From Candidatus Doudnabacteria bacterium (lineage in GTDB: Bacteria > Patescibacteriota > Doudnabacteria > UBA920), in contig JAHFJJ010000003.1 of assembly GCA_023245895.1 (NCBI GenBank), positions 11,343-75,342 of the forward strand: a stretch of 64,000 nt of DNA, read 5' to 3'. This document shows, in pieces, positions 3,450-57,606 of the stretch. The translations under genes and the position numbers were made by a program. The notes beneath the pieces are model-generated. The model saw nothing but the letters and a program-made list of their open reading frames with translations. It had not been told where the DNA came from and made no database searches. Numbering within the stretch: the first letter of the stretch is position 1; every line of letters begins with the position of its first letter.

Positions 3450-4619
3450 ATGAATCCAATTGAAGAATTACTAACCAGAGGCGTAGAGGAAGTAATAGAC
3501 AAGGCTCATTTAGAGTCTTTATTAAAGTCTAAAAAAAAGCTTAGGATAAAACTCGGCATAGACCCAACTTCCCCCAATATCCATATTGGCAGGGCGGTTG
3601 CTTTGTGGAAACTTCGGGCGTTCCAAGAGCTTGGGCACCAGGTAATTTTTATTGTAGGCGACTTTACAGGGTTAATTGGCGATACCGCGGACAAAGATAG
3701 TGAGCGGCCAATGTTAAGCGAAGTCGAAATAAAGACAAATTTAAGAACTTACTTCAAGCAGGCCTTTAAAATTTTAGATCCTAAAAAAACAGAAACCCAT
3801 TATAATTCCAAGTGGCTGAAAAAATTAGGTTTTTTAGAAATCGGTAAAATGGCCAACTTATTTGGGCTCCACGAATTTGAATCCAGGGAGAACATTGCCA
3901 AGCGTATGAAAGCAGGTAAGAGAGTTTCTTTGCGCGAATTGCTCTACCCCATAATGCAGGGCTACGATTCAGTTGCCATAAAGGCAGATGTGGAACTTGG
4001 CGGAACGGACCAGCGCTTTAATTTTTTGGCAGGCAGGACTATTCAGCCGGCTTATGGACAACAGGGCCAGGACATTATAACCTTACAGCTTATGGAAGGC
4101 ACGGACGGCCGTAAAATGTCTTCTTCCTGGGGTAATGTAATTAACATTACGGACGAGCCTAACGACATGTTCGGCAAGGTAATGTCTATTACAGATGAGC
4201 TAATAAAAAAATATTTTGTGCTGGCAACTAGGGTGGATATTACGGAAATTGATGAAATTATGAAATTGCCGAACCCGCGTGACCAAAAAATTATCTTAGC
4301 CGAAAAATTAACAGGTCTTTACCATGGCGACAAAAAAGCTGCCGGCGCAAAGGAAGCTTTTATTTCTCAATTCAGTAAGGGTGAACTGCCGGAAGACATT
4401 GAAATTAAATTTTTGCCTTCAGGCTTCATACCAACAGTTTCAGTGACGACATCCTTTTTGGTTGGTATTAGTAAATCAGAGGCTAAGAGGCTGATGGATC
4501 AAGGTGGTTTAAAGATAGATTCTAAAGTGGTTAAGGAAGATAAAATAATCGAAGATATAGAGAAAGAGCATTTGCTTCAGGCAGGAAAAAGAAGATTTTT
4601 TAAATTCAAAAGAAAATAG
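3450..4619 (+). CDS. tyrS: Tyrosine--tRNA ligase (class I aaRS with C-terminal S4 domain)
   Basis: HIGH-type motif (PNIHIGRA), GGTDQ motif, KMSSS (KMSKS variant), C-terminal S4-like RNA-binding region. Confidence 0.8.
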   Translation: MNPIEELLTRGVEEVIDKAHLESLLKSKKKLRIKLGIDPTSPNIHIGRAVALWKLRAFQELGHQVIFIVGDFTGLIGDTADKDSERPMLSEVEIKTNLRTYFKQAFKILDPKKTETHYNSKWLKKLGFLEIGKMANLFGLHEFESRENIAKRMKAGKRVSLRELLYPIMQGYDSVAIKADVELGGTDQRFNFLAGRTIQPAYGQQGQDIITLQLMEGTDGRKMSSSWGNVINITDEPNDMFGKVMSITDELIKKYFVLATRVDITEIDEIMKLPNPRDQKIILAEKLTGLYHGDKKAAGAKEAFISQFSKGELPEDIEIKFLPSGFIPTVSVTTSFLVGISKSEAKRLMDQGGLKIDSKVVKEDKIIEDIEKEHLLQAGKRRFFKFKRK

Positions 4620-5433: not shown

Positions 5434-6146
5434 AAGTTTGCCGATGTATGTACCGCTATTACATCTTCATCATTTTCCAATTCCGCGAATAAAGCGTCTA
5501 CTTTGGGTTTTTGTTCTTCTGTTAAGTCCGTTCCCTGTGAAGACTCTTTAATTACGTCTGCCTGGGCTATTTTGGCCCCAGCAGAGAGCAGGGCCTGTTT
5601 AATTTTATTTAAATCTTGCGGCTTGGTGTAGACTTCAAGCCCTTCTGCTGATTCACGCACGTCGTCAGCTCCGACATCAATCGCAGCCATTTCTATCGCG
5701 GGTAAATTACTATCGCGCTCAACTAAAATTTGCCCTTTAGTGTTAAATTGCCAGGCGACGCTCCCCTGCGCGCCTATGTTGCCGCCGTGCTCAGAAAATA
5801 TTTTGCGAATGTTATTAAATGTGCGGTTGCTGTTGTCGGTTATGGCTTCTATTAAAAAAGCTGTTGCAAAAGGTCCGTAGCCTTCGTATACGACTTCTTT
5901 AATGCCCGCGCCTTTTTCGCCCAGGGCAGACTTAATTGCCCGCTCAATGTTGTCATTGGGCATGCCTTGGTCTTTGGCGTAAACTATGGCGCTATTTAAC
6001 CTAAAGTTGGAAGAGGGGTCTCCGCTACCGCCTTCTTTTACGGCAATGGAAATTTTTTTGCTTAACTTGGAAAACAGCGCTCCCCGTTTTTGGTCAAGGA
6101 CGCCTTTGGTGCGTTTAATTTGTGACCATTTGCTGTGACCGCTCAT
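5430..6146 (-). CDS. yebC: YebC/PmpR family DNA-binding transcriptional regulator
   Basis: MSGHSKWSQIKRTKGVLDQKRGALFSKL... canonical YebC N-terminus. 4-bp overlap with ruvC start. Confidence 0.85.
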   Translation of the reverse strand: MSGHSKWSQIKRTKGVLDQKRGALFSKLSKKISIAVKEGGSGDPSSNFRLNSAIVYAKDQGMPNDNIERAIKSALGEKGAGIKEVVYEGYGPFATAFLIEAITDNSNRTFNNIRKIFSEHGGNIGAQGSVAWQFNTKGQILVERDSNLPAIEMAAIDVGADDVRESAEGLEVYTKPQDLNKIKQALLSAGAKIAQADVIKESSQGTDLTEEQKPKVDALFAELENDEDVIAVHTSANL

Positions 6147-6150
6147 AAGT

Positions 6151-6203
6151 GTAGCGTGCCCATTTATGGGCGTCCTTGTACCGCCGATAAATCGGCACGC
6201 TAC
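6151..6203. repeat. Family C structured palindromic repeat, copy 2
   Basis: gtagcgtgcccatttatgggcgtccttgtaccgccgataaatcggcacgctac, between yebC start and rsmI stop. Confidence 0.8.
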
Positions 6204-6211
6204 AAGAAGAC

Positions 6212-6877
6212 TTACTTAAATGATACTAATACCGTCATTTCCCCCTTTATTGCTTGGCGGGTTTTTAGGTCCGCAATAACCTGGTCGGGCGCGCCGCGCA
6301 GAAATTCTTCGTGCATTTTGGTCAGCTCGCGTGCAATTACCACCTGGCTGTTTGGGAAGGCGTTGGAAATGTAGCTTAAGGTTTTCATAATCCGCTCCGG
6401 TGATTCATAAAAAATTGCAGTTGCTTCGGCATTGGCTGCGTCCTGCAAAGCTTGCACAGTTTTAACCGCGGTCTTTTGCAAGAAACCCAGGAATAAAAAT
6501 TTATCCGTAGGAAGTCCCGATGCAGAAAGCGCTGCAATGGCCGCGCTGGCTCCGGGGATTGGAATAACCGAAACATTTTCTTTTATGCATTCTCGCACAA
6601 GCCTAAAGCCAGGGTCTGAAACTCCCGGAGTACCGGCGTCGGTAATTAAACATCCGTCTTCTTTAGCCAAACGGCGGGTCAGGTCTTTAACTATCTGCTG
6701 TTCATTATGTTCGGCAAACTGCACCATTTCTTTTGGCCACGCGCCAACATGCTCCAACAGCCTTTTTGAGTAAAGCGGATTTTCGGCCATGACAAAAACG
6801 GCGGATTTTAAAGTTTCAATCGCGCGAAGGCTTATGTCGCCTAAATTACCAATGGGAGTTGCTACTACGTAAAGCAT
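6212..6877 (-). CDS. rsmI: 16S rRNA (cytidine1402-2'-O)-methyltransferase RsmI
   Basis: MLYVVATPIGNLGDISLRAIETLK... tetrapyrrole-methylase fold, RsmI N-terminus. Confidence 0.8.
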   Translation of the reverse strand: MLYVVATPIGNLGDISLRAIETLKSAVFVMAENPLYSKRLLEHVGAWPKEMVQFAEHNEQQIVKDLTRRLAKEDGCLITDAGTPGVSDPGFRLVRECIKENVSVIPIPGASAAIAALSASGLPTDKFLFLGFLQKTAVKTVQALQDAANAEATAIFYESPERIMKTLSYISNAFPNSQVVIARELTKMHEEFLRGAPDQVIADLKTRQAIKGEMTVLVSFK

Positions 6878-7644
6878 TAATCCAATCCTTTAAGCCAGCT
6901 AATAAAAGTATCTTTCATAAATTTTTGGTGTTCCGGCTCTTTGCTGCCGTGCTCGGCTCCTGCCATTATTGCCAATTGTTTTTCACCGCCCAGTTTGTCC
7001 AAGAGCATTTTTTGGTGCTCCAAAGGGCAGACAGTATCTCTATCCCCCACTATAATTAATACAGGCATGGTTAGGTCGTGGGCCTTAGTCAGTAAGTCGT
7101 ATCTCAGCCGGTCTTCCATATGGGACCATGGCAGTAATTTTTTCTCTCCGGTTTCCGAATTAAATTCTTTTTCCTGTGCGCCTTGTTCTTTCCAAGTTTT
7201 TAAGCTTTCCGGACTTTTTGTTGCGGCGCTTAATTTTCCCGATACTACAGGAGCCAGCAAAAATAAAGCCTTAACTTTTTGTGGGTAGTCTTCAGCGTAA
7301 ACCCCGGCCGTAATGCCGCCCAGGCTTGAGCCAGCCAGAATAAACGGTTCCTTAAACCAGTTTTGGCCGCGTGCCCAGTTTATGACTTCTTTTAAGTCTT
7401 GGTAAAATTCGGTTATGGTTGCGTCTTCTGGTTTGCCGTCGCTTTTTCCGCGATGGTTCCTTGCGTCAAACCTTACAGCGGTATAGCCTTGTTCAAGGCA
7501 AGCTTCGGCAATATTTTTTCCGGTCGGCCTGTCCATATGCGTCCACAGCCCGTGCAGAATGAATACAGGGCCTTTGATATTGCTTTCGCCTTCGACTTTT
7601 ACGGCAATTTTTTGGCCTAATTTATTTTGGATAAAAGTTTCCAT
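6877..7644 (-). CDS. Alpha/beta hydrolase fold protein
   Basis: GSSLGG nucleophile elbow (GxSxG), HG oxyanion motif, ~255 aa. Confidence 0.6.
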   Translation of the reverse strand: METFIQNKLGQKIAVKVEGESNIKGPVFILHGLWTHMDRPTGKNIAEACLEQGYTAVRFDARNHRGKSDGKPEDATITEFYQDLKEVINWARGQNWFKEPFILAGSSLGGITAGVYAEDYPQKVKALFLLAPVVSGKLSAATKSPESLKTWKEQGAQEKEFNSETGEKKLLPWSHMEDRLRYDLLTKAHDLTMPVLIIVGDRDTVCPLEHQKMLLDKLGGEKQLAIMAGAEHGSKEPEHQKFMKDTFISWLKGLD

Positions 7645-7647
7645 ATT

Positions 7648-7926
7648 CTACCAGCCCTTGTCCGGGGCTTCCAAATTAAAAGCGGCTTCTATAAAGTCGT
7701 ATTCGGCTTTGAGTTTGTCGCGTTCTTCTTCCAATTCCTCTTTTTCGCGGCCTTCGGCTTCGTACCACTGGTCGTGGCTGTTTTGCAGTTCATCGTCTAT
7801 CTCCTGAAGCCTGGCATAAGCTTCGGTCTCGTTTTGGGGCCCCTGCTCGCTCCACTCCTCGTACTTCATCCCTAAGGTTTTTTGGTACTTGTCTTCAAAC
7901 AGGCTTTTTATATCATCTGCATCCAT
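7648..7926 (-). CDS. Hypothetical small acidic protein
   Basis: ORF tightly packed behind the hydrolase gene. No recognisable domain. Confidence 0.35.
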   Translation of the reverse strand: MDADDIKSLFEDKYQKTLGMKYEEWSEQGPQNETEAYARLQEIDDELQNSHDQWYEAEGREKEELEEERDKLKAEYDFIEAAFNLEAPDKGW

Positions 7927-9574: not shown

Positions 9575-9650
9575 GGGCGTGTAGCTCAGTTGGTAGAGCG
9601 GTCGTCTTATACACGACTGGTCGGGGGTCCGAGTCCCTCCACGCCCACCA
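9575..9650 (+). tRNA. tRNA-Ile (anticodon UAU), encoded CCA; atypical T-loop (C at position 55)
   Basis: Manual cloverleaf: acceptor gggcgtg/cacgccc, D-arm gctcagttggtagagc, anticodon stem gtcgt/acgac, loop cTTATac, T-arm ggggg-tccgagt-ccctc, CCA. Confidence 0.7.
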
Positions 9651-47559: not shown

Positions 47560-49113
47560 TTGTTAAAATTAATAAACAATATACCATGTATGATTAAATC
47601 AACTGTTAAAGACCAGGAAAGAATAGGCCAGTTTATTAGCGAACTTAGGGAATTAAAAGGCTTTACCCAAAGTGATTTTGCCAAAGCACTAAAAACCAGC
47701 CAGTCGGCCGTAGCCAGGATGGAACAGGGGCGGCAAAATTTAACCACGGAAATGCTGGCTAAAATAAGCGGCGTGTTAAATCATGAGATAATTACTCTGG
47801 CTGACAAATCGGTCAACTTTAAAATACAAGGCGGACATAAGCTGTCCGGGAAAGTAATTATCAACTCCTCCAAAAACGCGGCGGTTGCCCTGCTCTGTGC
47901 CTCTCTTTTGAATAAAGGCAAAACAGTATTTAAGAATGTGCCTAAAATAGAGGAAGTCCATCGCGTAATAGAAGTGTTAGCCAGCATAGGCGTAAGCATT
48001 AAATGGCACGGTAGTGATGTAGAAATTGTCCCGGGTAAAATCAGCCTTAATAAAATAGACAAAGACGCGGCCGTAAAGACCCGTAGTGTGCTTATGCTTT
48101 TGGGCCCGCTTTCCCATCTTCTTAAAAATTTTAACCTTCCTTTGGCTGGCGGCTGTAAATTGGGCGAAAGGACAGTAAGGCCGCATTTGTTCGCTTTGGA
48201 AAAATTGGGGGTAAGGATAAAAACCAGCCACGACCACTATCAAGTAACCTCTACGAAGCTTCAGCCGGCGGAAGTTGTCCTTTACGAAATGGGCGATACA
48301 GTTACCGAAAATGCTTTAATGGCTGCGGCTAAGATATCCGGGGTTACAACTATCAAACTGGCATCAGCTAACTATATGGTTCAGGACATGTGCCATTTTT
48401 TGGTTTCCTTGGGAGTTAAGATAGAAGGCATTGGCACATCTACCTTAAAAGTCCACGGCAAGCCTAATATTAACCAGCGCGCGGTTTTTTATTTAAGTGA
48501 AGACCCCATTGAGGCCATGCTGTTTTTGTCTTTGGCCGCTACGACTAATTCTTCCATTACCATAGAAAGATGCCCTATAGATTTCCTTGAGCTGGAATTG
48601 TTAAAGCTTGAAAAGATGGGTTTTAAATACCAAATTACCAAACGCTATAAAAGCCATAATGGCGTTACAAATTTGGTAGACATTAAGACTCTGCCTTCCA
48701 AACTTACGGCTTTAGAAGAAAAAATCCATCCGCTCACATCATCTGCCGGCATAAATATAGACAACCTCCCCTTCTTTGTCCCCATTGCCACCCAGGCTAA
48801 GGGCACAACTTTAATCCACGATTGGGTTTACGAAAACCGCGCCATCTACTATCTTGAACTAAATAAACTTCGCGCCAATGTTATTCTGGCCGACGCCCAC
48901 AGGGTCTATGTAGAAGGCGTAAGCGAACTTCGCGGCGCCGAAGTCATTTGCCCTCCCGCCCTTAGGCCCGCCGCTATTATTTTAATAGCAATGCTGGCGG
49001 CTAAAGGCACATCTGTCTTGCGCAATGTTTACTCTATTAATAGAGGTTACGAAAATTTGGTCCAACGTTTAAAAAGTTTGGGCGCTAAAATAGAAATGAT
49101 ACACAGCATATAA
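47560..49113 (+). CDS. murA: UDP-N-acetylglucosamine 1-carboxyvinyltransferase with N-terminal XRE-type HTH domain
   Basis: Residues ~10-65 form an HTH (GFTQSDFAKALKTSQSAVARMEQG). The remainder has the MurA/EPSP-synthase fold. Confidence 0.75.
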   Translation: MLKLINNIPCMIKSTVKDQERIGQFISELRELKGFTQSDFAKALKTSQSAVARMEQGRQNLTTEMLAKISGVLNHEIITLADKSVNFKIQGGHKLSGKVIINSSKNAAVALLCASLLNKGKTVFKNVPKIEEVHRVIEVLASIGVSIKWHGSDVEIVPGKISLNKIDKDAAVKTRSVLMLLGPLSHLLKNFNLPLAGGCKLGERTVRPHLFALEKLGVRIKTSHDHYQVTSTKLQPAEVVLYEMGDTVTENALMAAAKISGVTTIKLASANYMVQDMCHFLVSLGVKIEGIGTSTLKVHGKPNINQRAVFYLSEDPIEAMLFLSLAATTNSSITIERCPIDFLELELLKLEKMGFKYQITKRYKSHNGVTNLVDIKTLPSKLTALEEKIHPLTSSAGINIDNLPFFVPIATQAKGTTLIHDWVYENRAIYYLELNKLRANVILADAHRVYVEGVSELRGAEVICPPALRPAAIILIAMLAAKGTSVLRNVYSINRGYENLVQRLKSLGAKIEMIHSI

Positions 49114-49144
49114 TTTTTTGACTTTAACATTTTTTTGAGCTAAT

Positions 49145-49405
49145 ATGAAAGTAGATATGGACTATGGACTCACCAACCATGCCCGACAAAGGATAAAAGA
49201 ACGTAATATTTCAATTAAGCTGGTAGAGGAAGCTGTCTCCAACCCAACCAAAATTTCAGTAGACTCAAAAGGGGTTTTAATACTTAAGAAAGCAGTTTTA
49301 ATTAAAGGTAAACGCAGGCTATTGCTTATAGCCGGACAAGTTCGGGAAAACAAATTTAAAATTTTTACGATTATTGATACGTCTAAAGTAAAAAAGTACT
49401 TATGA
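49145..49405 (+). CDS. DUF4258 domain protein (toxin-like component of DUF4258/DUF2283 pair)
   Basis: LTNHARQRIKERNIS N-terminal motif typical of DUF4258. Confidence 0.5.
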   Translation: MKVDMDYGLTNHARQRIKERNISIKLVEEAVSNPTKISVDSKGVLILKKAVLIKGKRRLLLIAGQVRENKFKIFTIIDTSKVKKYL

Positions 49406-49632
49406 AGAAACAACAGGCAAAAATTATATATGACAAGGAGAGTCAGGTGTTGTCTTGGCAGCTTCAGGCCGGCAAGAGCGTAGACAGCGACATTGACGAC
49501 AATGTGGTTATTGACTATGGCAAAAACGGCAAAATTATGAGAATCAATTTTTACAATTTTAGCTTGGAAAATTTTAAAAAACATAAAGCTAATTTTAAAC
49601 AGTTGCACAATTTAGCTTTGCAGGTGAGATAA
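49402..49632 (+). CDS. DUF2283 domain protein (antitoxin-like partner)
   Basis: 76 aa. 4-bp overlap with the upstream DUF4258 gene. Pattern VVIDYGKNGKIMRIN typical of DUF2283. Confidence 0.5.
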   Translation: MKKQQAKIIYDKESQVLSWQLQAGKSVDSDIDDNVVIDYGKNGKIMRINFYNFSLENFKKHKANFKQLHNLALQVR

Positions 49633-49640
49633 ATAAACCG

Positions 49641-49710
49641 CGGCTACGAAAAATGTGGTGCAAAGGCTGAAAAGTTTAGGCGCGAAGATAGAGATGATAC
49701 ATAGCATATA
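49641..49710 (+). pseudogene. Duplicated remnant of the murA 3' end (encodes ...VVQRLKSLGAKIEMIHSI*)
   Basis: ~80% nucleotide identity to 49046-49113, the real murA terminus. Lies immediately after the DUF4258/DUF2283 pair. Confidence 0.7.
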
Positions 49711-49784
49711 AATAAAAAAAGAAAGGCACTCCGTGTGGGGTGCCTTTTTGAATTTGGCCTGTATTTAGCGTTGTTGTTGGCGAA

Positions 49785-50156
49785 TTACGTAGATTTATGA
49801 GGAGGGGCAAGCCTTAGCCCTCTCCTGAAAACCCACTGGCGCGCTGCTTCTTCGCTCGGAAGGCCGAGAATGGTCGCGAGATCCTTGCCTGAAATGCCGT
49901 TGCCGATAATTTTGACTACAGTTTTCAGCGCGAGACCGTCCAGTATTTCATTTAAGCCTGTGGCCTGGATTTTCTCACCGTCACGGAACAGGCTGGCAAT
50001 AAGCGTGGCTATGGCCTCGAGCCTTTCTTCCGCAGAAGAAGCTTCCATTGCCTTTTGAAGCTTTGTAACAGTCAGCAGTTCCTGGTACCGACTGTCTGCT
50101 AGCCGTAAAGCGGCTCGGAGCTCGTTCAGTATGTCGTCTACAGTCCTGGTTGCCAT
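49785..50156 (-). CDS. Hypothetical protein (possible HTH near C-terminus)
   Basis: GC-rich 123-aa ORF. No clear domain. Confidence 0.35.
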   Translation of the reverse strand: MATRTVDDILNELRAALRLADSRYQELLTVTKLQKAMEASSAEERLEAIATLIASLFRDGEKIQATGLNEILDGLALKTVVKIIGNGISGKDLATILGLPSEEAARQWVFRRGLRLAPPHKST

Positions 50157-50358
50157 TGTGTCCTCCTAGTACTAATGGTGTTTTGGTTTTTTTAAGGCGC
50201 TCTTTTAGGTAAATATTTTAACAACCGGCCTAAATGAAGCCTTTAAATGTATCATGAAAATCGTTCCGTGTCAAAGGACAGCAGAAAGGTTTTTCTAATA
50301 AGCAATCCTGGATTTTTAGTCCGGGGTGTTTCCTGTTTGCATGGCCGGACGCCTTAGG

Positions 50359-50760
50359 TCAGATTTTTTTGATTATGATTCGAAATTCTTTTTCCTCCGT
50401 TTGAAAATTTTCTTCCGTCACGAAAAAGATGTTAGTTTTTTCGTCGTTTTCTTTAAATGAGAGAATGCCAAACGGGGAATAAAATCTTTCATGGGCCAAG
50501 ATGACCAGAATTTTAAAATGTCCGTGGTCGCCGCCCGCCTGGTAGTGGAAAGATCCAGTCGTCAGGTTGATGCTAAAGCTGACCCAAAAGCAATTTTCAT
50601 TTCCGGCATTTTTACTCTCGATTTCCATCAAATCTAGGAAAGGCAGTATAGTGTATTCGCAAGTATTGAAAGGAACGTCGGGCAGCACCTTAACCGCCTC
50701 CATTGCCACCATAATGGCGTACAAGACCTCTGCGCTGAAACTGGCTCCCTGAGTTTGCAT
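50359..50760 (-). CDS. Hypothetical protein
   Basis: 133 aa. No recognisable domain. Confidence 0.35.
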   Translation of the reverse strand: MQTQGASFSAEVLYAIMVAMEAVKVLPDVPFNTCEYTILPFLDLMEIESKNAGNENCFWVSFSINLTTGSFHYQAGGDHGHFKILVILAHERFYSPFGILSFKENDEKTNIFFVTEENFQTEEKEFRIIIKKI

Positions 50761-51939: not shown

Positions 51940-52719
51940 TTGGAATTGAATGTTGATATACCGGGCATGAAACCCACACATCCATCTCATCACGTCCGCC
52001 ATATGGGCATTGGCACCGGAGTCTACAAGAGCCTGGGTCATTTGGTTTTGACTTTGGTAATTGTGGTTTTGCCATTTTTGTTTTTCCTGTTGTTTTCCAA
52101 AGCGGCTAAGCTGGCCACGGGAGAGTTGTTTGCCGATGTTTTTATTTCCGTGGGACGTTTGTTTTTTGCTTACGCCATTGCGGCGGGTTTAGGCTGGCTG
52201 TTGGCCGTAAGTTTTTACCATGGCAGGCGCGCCTCGGTTGCTTTGCCGGTGTTTGATGTCTTGCAGAGTTTTCCCACTTTTGCCCTTTTGCCTCTGGTTA
52301 CTTTGCTTTGGGGCAAGAGCGAGCTGACCATTGTTTTCTTTTTGGTTATTACCATTATTTGGCCAATATTTTTTACAGTCGTGTCACAGCTCAAGCTTTT
52401 AAAGTCCGAATGGCAGGAAGTAGTTACGGTATACGGGCTTTCAGGAAAGGATTATTTAAAATATTATTTGTGGCCTGCATCGCTCCCCGGGCTTATTACC
52501 GGTTCCATTATTGGTTTGGGTGAAGGCTGGGAAGCGTTGGTGGCTACGGAAATTATTGTTAACCACCCTGTTGGCTTGGGCAGTTTTTTTCAAAATAATT
52601 CTTTACACCCCGTTCTGACCGCGGTGGGCATTTTTGGCCTTCTGCTTTTAATTTTTTGCGTTAACAAGCTAATTTGGTTGCCGCTTTTGGAATGGAGCCA
52701 TAAGAGGAGCGAGGAGTAG
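51940..52719 (+). CDS. ABC transporter permease (NitT/TauT-type binding-protein-dependent family)
   Basis: Six TM helices and an EAA-like loop. Followed by the ATPase gene. Confidence 0.6.
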   Translation: MELNVDIPGMKPTHPSHHVRHMGIGTGVYKSLGHLVLTLVIVVLPFLFFLLFSKAAKLATGELFADVFISVGRLFFAYAIAAGLGWLLAVSFYHGRRASVALPVFDVLQSFPTFALLPLVTLLWGKSELTIVFFLVITIIWPIFFTVVSQLKLLKSEWQEVVTVYGLSGKDYLKYYLWPASLPGLITGSIIGLGEGWEALVATEIIVNHPVGLGSFFQNNSLHPVLTAVGIFGLLLLIFCVNKLIWLPLLEWSHKRSEE

Positions 52720-56528: not shown

Positions 56529-56795
56529 TTAATATTTCAGAAATTCTTTAAGCATTTGTTTTAAAGTCACCTTACCTTTTGTTGTTTTGAAATACGCTTC
56601 TCTGCGTAAGGCGTCTTCCTTTGATCCAAAAGCCTCGTAGAATATCAGCTCGAGAGGCCTGCGATTTTTGGTTGATATATTTTTACCCTTATTATGGTCT
56701 ATAAATCGTTGTTTCAAATTATCAGAGTAGCCAATATAGAATAGCTTATCTTTAAGACTTCTGAGTATGTAAACGTAATGAAATTTTATAGTCAT
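56529..56795 (-). CDS. GIY-YIG nuclease family protein (second tandem copy)
   Basis: HYVYILRSLKDKLFYIGYSDNLKQRFIDHNKG. The ORF track extends to 56855 into the tRNA-adjacent element, so the MTIKF start at ~56795 is preferred. Confidence 0.55.
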   Translation of the reverse strand: MTIKFHYVYILRSLKDKLFYIGYSDNLKQRFIDHNKGKNISTKNRRPLELIFYEAFGSKEDALRREAYFKTTKGKVTLKQMLKEFLKY

Positions 56796-56810
56796 TTGAT
56801 TCTTTGTGTC

Positions 56811-56918
56811 CAGCCCTGTACCAGTCGTCTGACTCCGGTACGGGGCATGAACCATTCACCCCACTTTCCATTAGCACGCTGGTGGCGTGCCATGAACCTG
56901 AACGGAGTGAATGGTTCA
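56811..56918 (-). repeat. tRNA-3'-adjacent structured element, copy 2 (3' of tRNA-Ala CGC)
   Basis: On the tRNA strand it begins tgaaccattcac immediately after CCA. Outer stem tgaaccattcac/gtgaatggttca. Shares motifs with 30767-30980. Confidence 0.6.
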
Positions 56919-57045: not shown

Positions 57046-57075
57046 ACTAGCATAGTGCGCGGCCGCGCACTATGC
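57046..57075. promoter_or_regulatory. 30-bp perfect palindrome tagcatagtgcgcggccgcgcactatgcta at the 3' end of the PaaX-like gene
   Basis: Perfect dyad containing gcggccgc. A related imperfect palindrome at 57616-57650 lies upstream of the same gene. Confidence 0.55.
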
Positions 57076-57606
57076 TAGTTGAAATTTTCGTTTTAAATCG
57101 GTATCGTCATCTAACTCATCTATTCTTGCTAAGTGTATAAACTCAATTAAACCGGTTTCTTTTAAGTACTCAACAGCCGCCCGGTTTAACGGATAGGGGC
57201 TGATAAAAACACTGGCCTGCCACTTAATAAAGTTATTTTCTTTTAGGAGCCTTCTGAGCTTGTCTCGTTTATCTTTGGCTTCTTCGGGGATATCAAATGC
57301 CGCCAACCTCCATTTATTGTCCCACTTACCTTTTTCCTTTCTCGACAAGTGCGCTTTTAAAAACAAGGTTTCCATCTCGCCTTTTTTAGTGAGTTCAATA
57401 AAATGCCTCCCGTGCTTACTAATTTTTTTTATTAACCCCCGGGCCTTCAGGTTGTGTAAGGTATCATAAATTTTTTTGCTCTTGTAATTTTTTAACTGCT
57501 CGCGCCTCCAAGAGTCAGAATACTCCAAAGGCCAGGTGAAAAACCCCGTAGCGTCGCCTATGGCACTTAGCAATACAGATGAAAATGTCCCGTACTTTTT
57601 TGACAT
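57070..57606 (-). CDS. PaaX-like transcriptional regulator (wHTH + Cas2-like fold domain) - putative
   Basis: WRLAAFDIPEEAKDKRDKLRRLLKENNFIKWQASVFI resembles the Cas2-like middle domain of PaaX-family proteins. Confidence 0.4.
   Translation of the reverse strand: MSKKYGTFSSVLLSAIGDATGFFTWPLEYSDSWRREQLKNYKSKKIYDTLHNLKARGLIKKISKHGRHFIELTKKGEMETLFLKAHLSRKEKGKWDNKWRLAAFDIPEEAKDKRDKLRRLLKENNFIKWQASVFISPYPLNRAAVEYLKETGLIEFIHLARIDELDDDTDLKRKFQLA

Follow-up and report, generated by a model that had tools for sequence, protein, structure and literature searches.

The DNA analysed here, called the window in the following, is a stretch of 64,000 nt from contig JAHFJJ010000003.1 of Candidatus Doudnabacteria. 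It contains a small two-gene cassette of the DUF4258/DUF2283 type, which lies directly behind the murA gene and is enclosed by two copies of the murA 3' end. All features of the locus are located on the plus strand. The host gene murA (47590–49113; PF00275, E = 2.8e-49) codes for UDP-N-acetylglucosamine 1-carboxyvinyltransferase, and the gene callers predict a protein of 507 amino acids (aa) starting at the ATG at 47590. Its last 25 codons and the stop codon form the left direct repeat c1 (49036–49113, delimited by repeat alignment), which encodes INRGYENLVQRLKSLGAKIEMIHSI and is the functional end of the gene. Only 4 nt past the stop codon and approximately 10 nt ahead of the toxin start follows a sigma-70-like promoter, TTGACT-17-TAATAT (49118–49146), identified purely by its match to the consensus. 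The first cassette gene is the putative DUF4258 toxin gene (49157–49405; PF14076, E = 4.3e-8). Its open reading frame (ORF) reaches up to an ATG at 49145, but the gene callers and all homologues place the start at the second ATG at 49157, resulting in a protein of 82 aa. The putative DUF2283 antitoxin gene (49402–49632, 76 aa; PF10049, E = 1.8e-8) overlaps with it by 4 nt (ATGA), and its stop codon directly abuts the right direct repeat c2 (49633–49711, again from repeat alignment), an untranslated copy of the murA terminus reading INRGYENVVQRLKSLGAKIEMIHSI. The insert between the repeats comprises 519 nt and holds these two genes only.

Behind c2 folding identified an intrinsic terminator (49720–49757) consisting of a 13-bp stem, a GUGU loop and a T-run. 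The hairpin (49720–49749) has a folding energy of -22 kcal/mol (z = -4.98), and none of 200 shuffled sequences folded as well. Between murA and the cassette no terminator was found, so transcription of the cassette should start from its own promoter as well as by read-through from murA; judging from this arrangement the cassette is probably transcribed from both, ending at the former murA terminator. An earlier interpretation of the locus, made without database searches and referred to here as the sequence-only reading, had assigned the hairpin to the cassette as its own terminator. This assignment is not borne out: relatives without an insert, as well as L005 and L159 (L-numbers denote related loci or contigs), have their native murA terminator where the window has the hairpin, which is therefore more likely the terminator of murA. 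It is now predicted to close the transcripts of murA and of the cassette alike. The positions of the -35 box TTGAC(T/A) and of the -10 box recur in L149 and L159/L160, and also in L005 and L161, where they precede another type of cassette.

Both cassette proteins match their Pfam families above the gathering score. The DUF4258 protein reaches 33.8 bits against a cutoff of 25 and covers profile positions 1–70 of 71, the DUF2283 protein 34.9 bits against a cutoff of 23. Together with the 4-nt overlap these matches bear out the earlier proposal of a toxin-antitoxin-like pair behind murA. DUF2283 follows DUF4258 in nine out of nine contexts read that keep the toxin gene, and for 16 DUF2283 homologues a DUF4258 partner was present in every context read. 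Two loci carry reduced versions of the pair: L161 retains the antitoxin only, the toxin gene being deleted, and in L164 an internally deleted toxin is fused to the antitoxin in a single protein of 122 aa. These two cases hint at a decay that begins with the toxin.

An alignment of only four toxin homologues contains 32 invariant columns out of 82, including H8, R12, E15 and R16, which form the invariant N-terminal pattern H-x3-R-x2-E-R. The AlphaFold2 model of the toxin (predicted local distance difference test score, pLDDT, of 89) has the topology beta-alpha-alpha-beta4. Its top Foldseek matches in the PDB are HigB2, HP0894, YafQ, MqsR, RelE and ParE2, with a probability of 0.99, a weak E-value of 6e-3 and a template modelling score of about 0.5; de novo designed beta-sheet proteins and NTF2-like proteins are interleaved among them. 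DUF4258 has been placed in the BECR or RelE-ParE ribonuclease superfamily, with a target that is not known (Gerdes 2025, PMC11980606; bioRxiv 10.64898/2026.08.28.747851). The window protein shares with the toxins described there the above-threshold Pfam match, the small size and the bicistronic partner. In contrast to the order of antitoxin followed by toxin in the survey, the toxin comes first in the window and the partner belongs to DUF2283. From these features we classify the cassette, about 0.5 kb in size, as a predicted type II toxin-antitoxin module that has its own promoter, begins with the toxin gene and encodes a putative BECR/RelE-like, RNase-like toxin. Our literature search found no paper naming both DUF4258 and DUF2283. 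PADLOC reported no defence-system match for either cassette protein, and blastn against PLSDB gave no match, leaving a plasmid origin unsupported.

Next to the gene pair, the duplicated murA terminus is the defining feature of the locus. After removal of one extra A from c2, which lies in the A-run 49649–49653 and causes a frameshift, c1 and c2 are identical at 62 of 78 positions (79.5%) over 26 codons including the stop. Without this correction the repeat spans 62 nt (49052–49113 versus 49650–49711) with 82% identity, and the longest runs of perfect identity are 8–9 nt. The similarity is statistically solid, with an E-value of 7e-6 for blastn-short in a 1.2-Mb database and of 2e-9 for tblastn in the 4 kb downstream. 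The duplicate of roughly 80% identity noticed in the sequence-only reading is thus real, although its limits have to be moved from 49641–49710 to 49633–49711. No other duplication of a gene terminus was found in the 64-kb window. The same arrangement is present in L148, a 99.9% identical contig from another sample, and likewise in a Logan contig, which argues against an assembly artefact.

The 16 nucleotide differences between c1 and c2 fall into 13 codons and cause a single, conservative amino acid change (L to V). They are unevenly distributed: identity is 69% over the first 36 nt and 87% in the last 39 nt, the stop codon being left out. Of the 16 differences 13 count as synonymous; with about 14.5 synonymous sites available this amounts to saturation. 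We extended the comparison to five repeat pairs (window, L149, L161, L005, L150) and found 48 nucleotide differences with only 3 amino acid changes. Since path-averaged Nei-Gojobori counts inflate non-synonymous change at the six-fold codons of Arg and Ser, they were replaced by counts of amino acid changes and by a simulation of decay in place. Here an identical pair was allowed to diverge in such a way that the functional copy took synonymous changes only, while the remnant took any change. The simulation leads to an expectation of 27 amino acid changes with a minimum of 14 in 4000 runs, compared to the 3 observed. The almost purely synonymous divergence indicates that the repeat copies go back to two murA alleles, both functional, of a donor and a recipient, and did not arise by decay in place of a duplicated target.

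At present c2 itself appears to be non-functional: it has no start codon, it carries the frameshift in the window, it is disrupted by insertions and deletions in L159 and it has lost its 5' part in L005. Rfam searches with c2 and the terminator yielded sub-threshold noise only. We also considered translation of c2 by read-through of the antitoxin stop codon. The antitoxin and c2 are in frame in the window and L161, but the extra A interrupts this frame in the window, as do the insertions and deletions in L159 and a 105-nt spacer in L149, and this candidate was rejected.

For comparison 147 related murA loci were recovered. The closest come from metagenome-assembled genomes (MAGs) labelled Candidatus Doudnabacteria, with 83–89% aa identity of MurA. 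In relatives from at least 8 lineages the murA stop codon is followed directly by a terminator (L001, L003, L004, L008, L081, L084–L090, L140, L146), i.e. the site is empty and the murA end present as a single copy. Empty sites had been suggested as a check by the sequence-only reading and were found. Beyond the terminator the sequence varies among lineages, making the murA 3' flank a break in synteny. A second small variable islet is located there: at 49785–50760, between the terminator and a TrmB gene, the window contains two minus-strand ORFs of 123 and 133 aa without an above-threshold Pfam match, where L161 has an unrelated ORF of 189 aa and L005 and L159 have none.

Occupied sites were found in several relatives. 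The murA gene of L161 is 79% identical to that of the window at the nucleotide level, and its junction GTGAGATAA|ATAAACCGCGG is the same; its c2 is intact (INRGYKNLVQRLKSLGAKIEMIHSI with stop codon), and the toxin gene has been deleted since. In L149, a Paceibacterales MAG, the cassette proteins share 65% (toxin) and 71% (antitoxin) aa identity with those of the window. Both repeat copies of L149 encode QSLGAKIEMMNGI (ending in EMMNGI) in spite of 13 nucleotide differences, all of which are synonymous, including AGT versus TCG for Ser; the last 21 nt of both copies are identical. The same family of cassettes at the murA junction also occurs in L159, L160 and a 9-kb contig with murA upstream of the cassette, with an antitoxin that is 83% identical (P0007). 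The c2 copy of L159 lacks about 24 nt through a deletion and also contains small insertions.

The site is not reserved for one type of cassette. L005, from a Doudnabacteria MAG, carries an unrelated two-gene cassette at the same murA end (5557–6361) with its own TTGACA promoter. It encodes a BrnT-like toxin (E = 4e-4) and a CopG-like antitoxin (E = 8e-6), both below the Pfam cutoffs, and is followed by a copy of the murA end and by a terminator in a position equivalent to that of the window. The downstream flank of L005, a radical-SAM gene, is shared with L159, which has the DUF4258 cassette. Two cassette types at one site and this common flank suggest that the murA end acts like a landing pad for alternative cassettes.

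Two further duplications of the murA end were noticed among the related loci. In L099, a distant Patescibacteria relative, the end is duplicated 1.8 kb downstream (5440–5503 and 7317–7379), and the copies flank a minus-strand gene for a surface-protein-like product of 540 aa, which is paralogous to the gene that follows; the arrangement goes back to a local duplication and has no toxin-antitoxin cassette. In L019 (4912–5050) the last 11 murA codons appear as an inverted copy at the contig end, for which an artefact of the assembly is the most likely reason.

Repeats flank cassettes of the DUF4258/DUF2283 family at targets other than murA, too. In L162 (1635–2273) the cassette directly follows tRNA-Leu(GAG), and on its far side a 35-nt repeat of the tRNA 3' end is present with 91% identity; L164 (2170–2690) is a decayed version of this arrangement in which the repeat has decayed as well. 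In L150–L157 the cassette is located between a cation-efflux gene and an MJ0043_C-type gene. Here the repeat (L150: 4440–4500 and 5000–5060, and the same in L151–L157) consists of the upstream region and the first nine codons of the downstream gene, so that a gene start is duplicated instead of a gene end. The two copies (ATGCGCTTTATCGCTGATTTTCATATT and ATGAGATTTATCGCTGATTTCCACATT) show 4 differences, all synonymous, over a length of approximately 45–55 nt, which was read from the alignment and not formally delimited. Repeat lengths among the instances are 35, about 45–55, 66 and 78 nt, and the positions of the junctions vary too. For cassettes located after an HSP20 gene and after pheT (L165) no flanking repeat was recovered.

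We then asked which of the two murA ends in the window was imported. The first 36 nt of c1 (beginning with ATTAATAGAGGTTAC) are an outlier with 61–78% identity to the murA end of every relative. In comparison c2 starts with the ATAAACCGCGGCTA that is usual in the clade, its first 36 nt match the clade consensus and are 89% identical to the functional murA end of L005, and it adjoins the terminator exactly as single-copy murA ends do. The GC content at third codon positions is 31% in c1 and 45% in murA, and the overall GC content of the cassette is 35%. The outlying 5' part and low third-position GC of c1, set against the consensus-like c2, somewhat favour c1 as the imported copy. The last 42 nt of c2 point in another direction. 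They are identical at 40 of 42 positions (95%) to the copies L005_c2 and L161_c3, which are associated with cassettes and non-functional; over the same stretch 5–8 positions separate these copies from c1 and from the functional ends. The best 42-nt window within murA between these genomes reaches 92.9%, which is below the value for c2, and the similarity between c2 and L005 runs on for 7 nt beyond the stop codon. From this comparison c2 too may move with cassettes. A search for breakpoints and for the native copy by third-position GC and block-wise identity along murA showed relatives at about 75–79% identity with saturated third positions and an unexceptional terminal block. The sequence-only reading had proposed that the cassette arrived with a replacement gene end and left the displaced original terminus behind. 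Its implication of two functional murA alleles fits the data; c2 as the native end is not established by them, as the evidence is split between c1 and c2.

Two related contigs bear on how such cassettes may move. In L161 (3507–3907), about 1.8 kb past murA, a homologue of an ABC permease is interrupted after GVYKSLG; the counterpart in the window is intact (51940–52719). The interruption starts with a third piece of the murA end, AKIEMIHSI with stop codon (L161_c3, 3579–3620), followed by a promoter and then by a BrnT-like toxin that shares 50% identity with that of L005. The junction coincides with a Y-K-S-L-G microhomology common to the permease and murA, and its 14-nt overlap is too short for a chimera of an assembly with k = 31. 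A piece of the murA end thus seems to have travelled into a new gene on the left side of a cassette. The second case is L159 (1–170 and 578–702), which begins with the last 61 nt of the antitoxin gene, a hybrid repeat with a c2-type 5' part and a c1-type 3' part, and the cassette promoter. It continues with a whole cassette, c2 and the chromosomal flank. A reciprocal product of this kind would be expected if c1 and c2 recombined, and the hybrid junction possibly represents an excised circle or a tandem copy of the cassette, with a period of 577 nt. Furthermore the short contigs L148, L158 and L160 are bounded exactly by the repeats, which is consistent with alternative contexts of the cassette in the populations. 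As far as their junctions can be read, L159 and L161 favour recombination by homology or microhomology. Between 38.6 and 63.3 kb of the window, the ORFs of 110 aa or more gave no match to an integrase or transposase domain of Pfam.

We propose, with slightly better than even confidence, that a recombination without an integrase, for which homology to murA was the anchor, put the cassette into the final 26 codons of the gene, and that addiction has held it there since. A unit composed of a murA terminus and the cassette would enter by murA-anchored recombination and keep the essential gene intact, either through homology-facilitated illegitimate recombination or through a single or double crossover. 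In the product c1 would close murA, and c2 would stay downstream as a pseudo-terminus together with the murA terminator. Recombination between c1 and c2 could delete the module or release it as a circle or tandem copy. Cells losing the module would be poisoned by the longer-lived toxin, and the insert would in this way be protected from deletion via the repeats. In a more far-reaching version, which we regard as doubtful, small toxin-antitoxin cassettes of Patescibacteria would be autonomous, recombinase-free parasites that use a coding-competent copy of a host gene's terminus as homology arm, insert through homologous or microhomology recombination without ever breaking the essential gene, amplify or excise as circles via the flanking repeats, persist by addiction and swap with each other at the murA landing pad.

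Several observations weigh against the proposal of murA-anchored recombination. The cassette genes have diverged between genomes as much as murA (proportion of synonymous differences 0.54–0.76, saturated), and the murA 3' kilobase shows neither excess similarity nor a gradient among the cassette-bearing genomes; the comparisons reveal no direct trace of a recent transfer into the lineage of the window. As homologous cassettes sit at the same junction in genomes that are synonymously saturated against the window, the insertion in this lineage is not recent. With perfect runs as short as those between c1 and c2, the two repeats of the window can hardly be expected to recombine today. The L161 contig ends within the toxin gene and the right junction is missing. 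The junction of L159 relies on one short megahit metagenome contig, for which a small-k assembly chimera is possible. Finally, repeats at a tRNA 3' end and at the 3' or 5' end of genes are the classic footprint of tyrosine-integrase elements, which carry coding-competent replacement ends too. Such a recombinase might act in trans from another place in the genome or from a phage.

This last point leads to the main rival, in which the repeats represent the attachment sites attL and attR of a miniature element resembling a cis-mobilizable element or an integron cassette, or of the remnant of an addictive island. A tyrosine or serine recombinase encoded elsewhere would act in trans, and the element-borne attachment site would carry the replacement murA end. 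Among integrative islands and cis-mobilizable elements there are those that insert at the 3' end of a tRNA or protein gene and bring a replacement end with them. The locus shares with them the duplication of a gene end in the manner of attL and attR and a coding-competent copy on the element, and the targets and repeat lengths would suit an integrase: the 35 nt at the tRNA-Leu 3' end of L162, the murA 3' end and the gene 5' end of L150. The tRNA 3' end is the chief reason to grant some probability to a recombinase that acts in trans. In addition, the left boundary of c2, ATAAACCGCGG, is the same in the window, L161 and L149, and differences that are synonymous only would also be expected if the gene end were borne on a phage-type attachment site (attP). 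In contrast to such islands the insert measures only about 0.5 kb, and neither within it nor within 25 kb around it was a gene for an integrase or another recombinase found. The three targets have no common core, perfect identity between c1 and c2 does not exceed the 8–9 nt given above, and the junctions shift from instance to instance. L161_c3 has 2 mismatches to L005_c2 and 8 to L005_c1, and if its crossover had taken place at KSLG, the element-type sequence of L005 would be on the wrong side. A decayed island would not be expected to leave inserts so tightly trimmed in three unrelated targets. A phage attP was sought in IMG/VR by means of a degenerate pattern of the murA end and of the toxin alignment, without any hit. 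Overall we consider integration in trans unlikely, while still taking it seriously.

In a further rival the cassette was inserted once, long ago, and was inherited vertically. Here c2 would have stayed recognisable because functional murA ends, either c1 or empty-site alleles acquired from relatives, repeatedly recombined with it or converted it, or because it has its own role in the 3' untranslated region of the operon. Cassette and murA are equally saturated and rank the relatives in the same way, the junctions of the window and L161 are identical, and c1 and c2 share lineage-specific residues within a genome (MMNGI in L149). The decay of c2 also forms a gradient from the 5' junction, from 69% to 87% identity in the window and visible as insertions and deletions in L159 and as a 5' truncation in L005. 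However, a neutral remnant of that age should be unrecognisable, and had c1 converted c2, the synonymous differences now present would have been lost. A conserved function of c2 finds no backing in Rfam matches or in its reading frame, which is disturbed by the frameshift in the window and by the insertions and deletions of L159, and one ancient event does not account for two unrelated cassette types at one site. We therefore think this history improbable. Least of all do we expect a duplication of the target site or a tandem duplication during insertion, by a staggered cut or replication slippage and followed by decay, or an assembly artefact; either would be very surprising. Direct repeats do flank the insert, and L099 illustrates that the murA end can be duplicated by local gene duplication, but the decay model is rejected by the simulation (3 amino acid changes versus 27 expected; 0 of 4000 runs reach the observed value). 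Independent assemblies contradict an artefact, as do five further records in which homologous arrangements are present.

Similar arrangements have been described for restriction-modification (R-M) systems as "insertion with long target duplication" (Nobusato et al. 2000, as referred to by Furuta, Abe & Kobayashi 2010, PMC2853133). The repeats there often span a start or stop codon, and a virus-like cycle of insertion, amplification via the repeats and release has been proposed. These R-M systems and our locus have in common an addictive two-gene module without a mobility gene and direct repeats of more than 30 bp that are present as a single copy in empty sites. Measured against the features listed by Furuta et al., the window has 78-nt repeats (>30 bp), a single copy at empty sites and an insert below 20 kb without mobile-element genes. 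R and M genes are absent (no R-M match in PADLOC or Pfam), and the repeats, at 79.5% identity, are not near-identical. The cargo is an R-M system in one case and a toxin-antitoxin module in the other, and the latter provides no DNA-cutting enzyme to make a break. Furthermore, the repeats described here are 79–91% identical, appear to represent two alleles and come from a host of the Candidate Phyla Radiation (CPR), whereas the R-M repeats are about 93–100% identical and represent one duplicated target. The hybrid junction of L159 would fit the R-M cycle as outlined there.

A second parallel is the C-terminal displacement of effector-immunity modules in Rhs proteins, contact-dependent inhibition (CDI) and type VI secretion systems (T6SS), which has been explained by illegitimate recombination of the homology-facilitated kind (Kirchberger et al. 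2017, PMC5361080, with reference to Jackson 2009, de Vries & Wackernagel 2002 and Prudhomme 2002). In both settings the 5' gene body offers a homology anchor, a 3' tip comes in with linked small genes and the old tip is orphaned downstream. The window displays this structure in the succession c1-cassette-c2, and in L161 a murA tip stands to the left of a cassette. The tips of Rhs, CDI and T6SS proteins are different toxins and the function changes, whereas the tips at our locus are the same MurA C-terminus with a toxin-antitoxin operon behind the stop codon. The locus differs from both precedents in the toxin-antitoxin cargo, the isofunctional ends of a housekeeping gene, the diverged alleles and the CPR host.

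Apart from the cassette some other features of the region were recorded. MurA of the window carries an XRE-type helix-turn-helix (HTH) domain at its N-terminus (approximately 47590–47830; PF01381 HTH_3, E = 3e-11), and most of the 147 related loci also have an N-terminal HTH. The fusion is kept across the Patescibacteria relatives and is also found, at 55% identity, in L034 and L035, two multi-megabase contigs labelled Actinomycetota. ARAGORN predicts a tRNA-Ile with the anticodon TAT at 9575–9650; this tRNA is an uncommon reader of AUA in bacteria, where a lysidine-modified CAT tRNA is usual. Small GIY-YIG domain proteins are encoded in at least two paralogous copies (56529–56855 and, on the minus strand, 7475–7750), and a protein of 178 aa with a PaaX central or Cas2-like domain (PF20803, E = 8e-19) is located at 57070–57606.

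The movement of chromosomal toxin-antitoxin modules without mobility genes is a long-standing loose end, and their label as "mobile cassettes" derives mostly from a patchy distribution. The murA locus and its relatives provide a concrete anatomy for such movement, with a linked homology arm, gene ends of two alleles, two types of cassettes, several targets, a possible circle or tandem junction and a landing at microhomology. In addition, the locus illustrates how insertions can be tolerated by an essential gene in the streamlined genome of an uncultured CPR bacterium. For genome annotation, short pseudo-termini behind small operons may be regarded as footprints of such events. If the cassettes were indeed autonomous parasites, a virus-like cycle as proposed, and never demonstrated, for R-M systems would extend to toxin-antitoxin modules.

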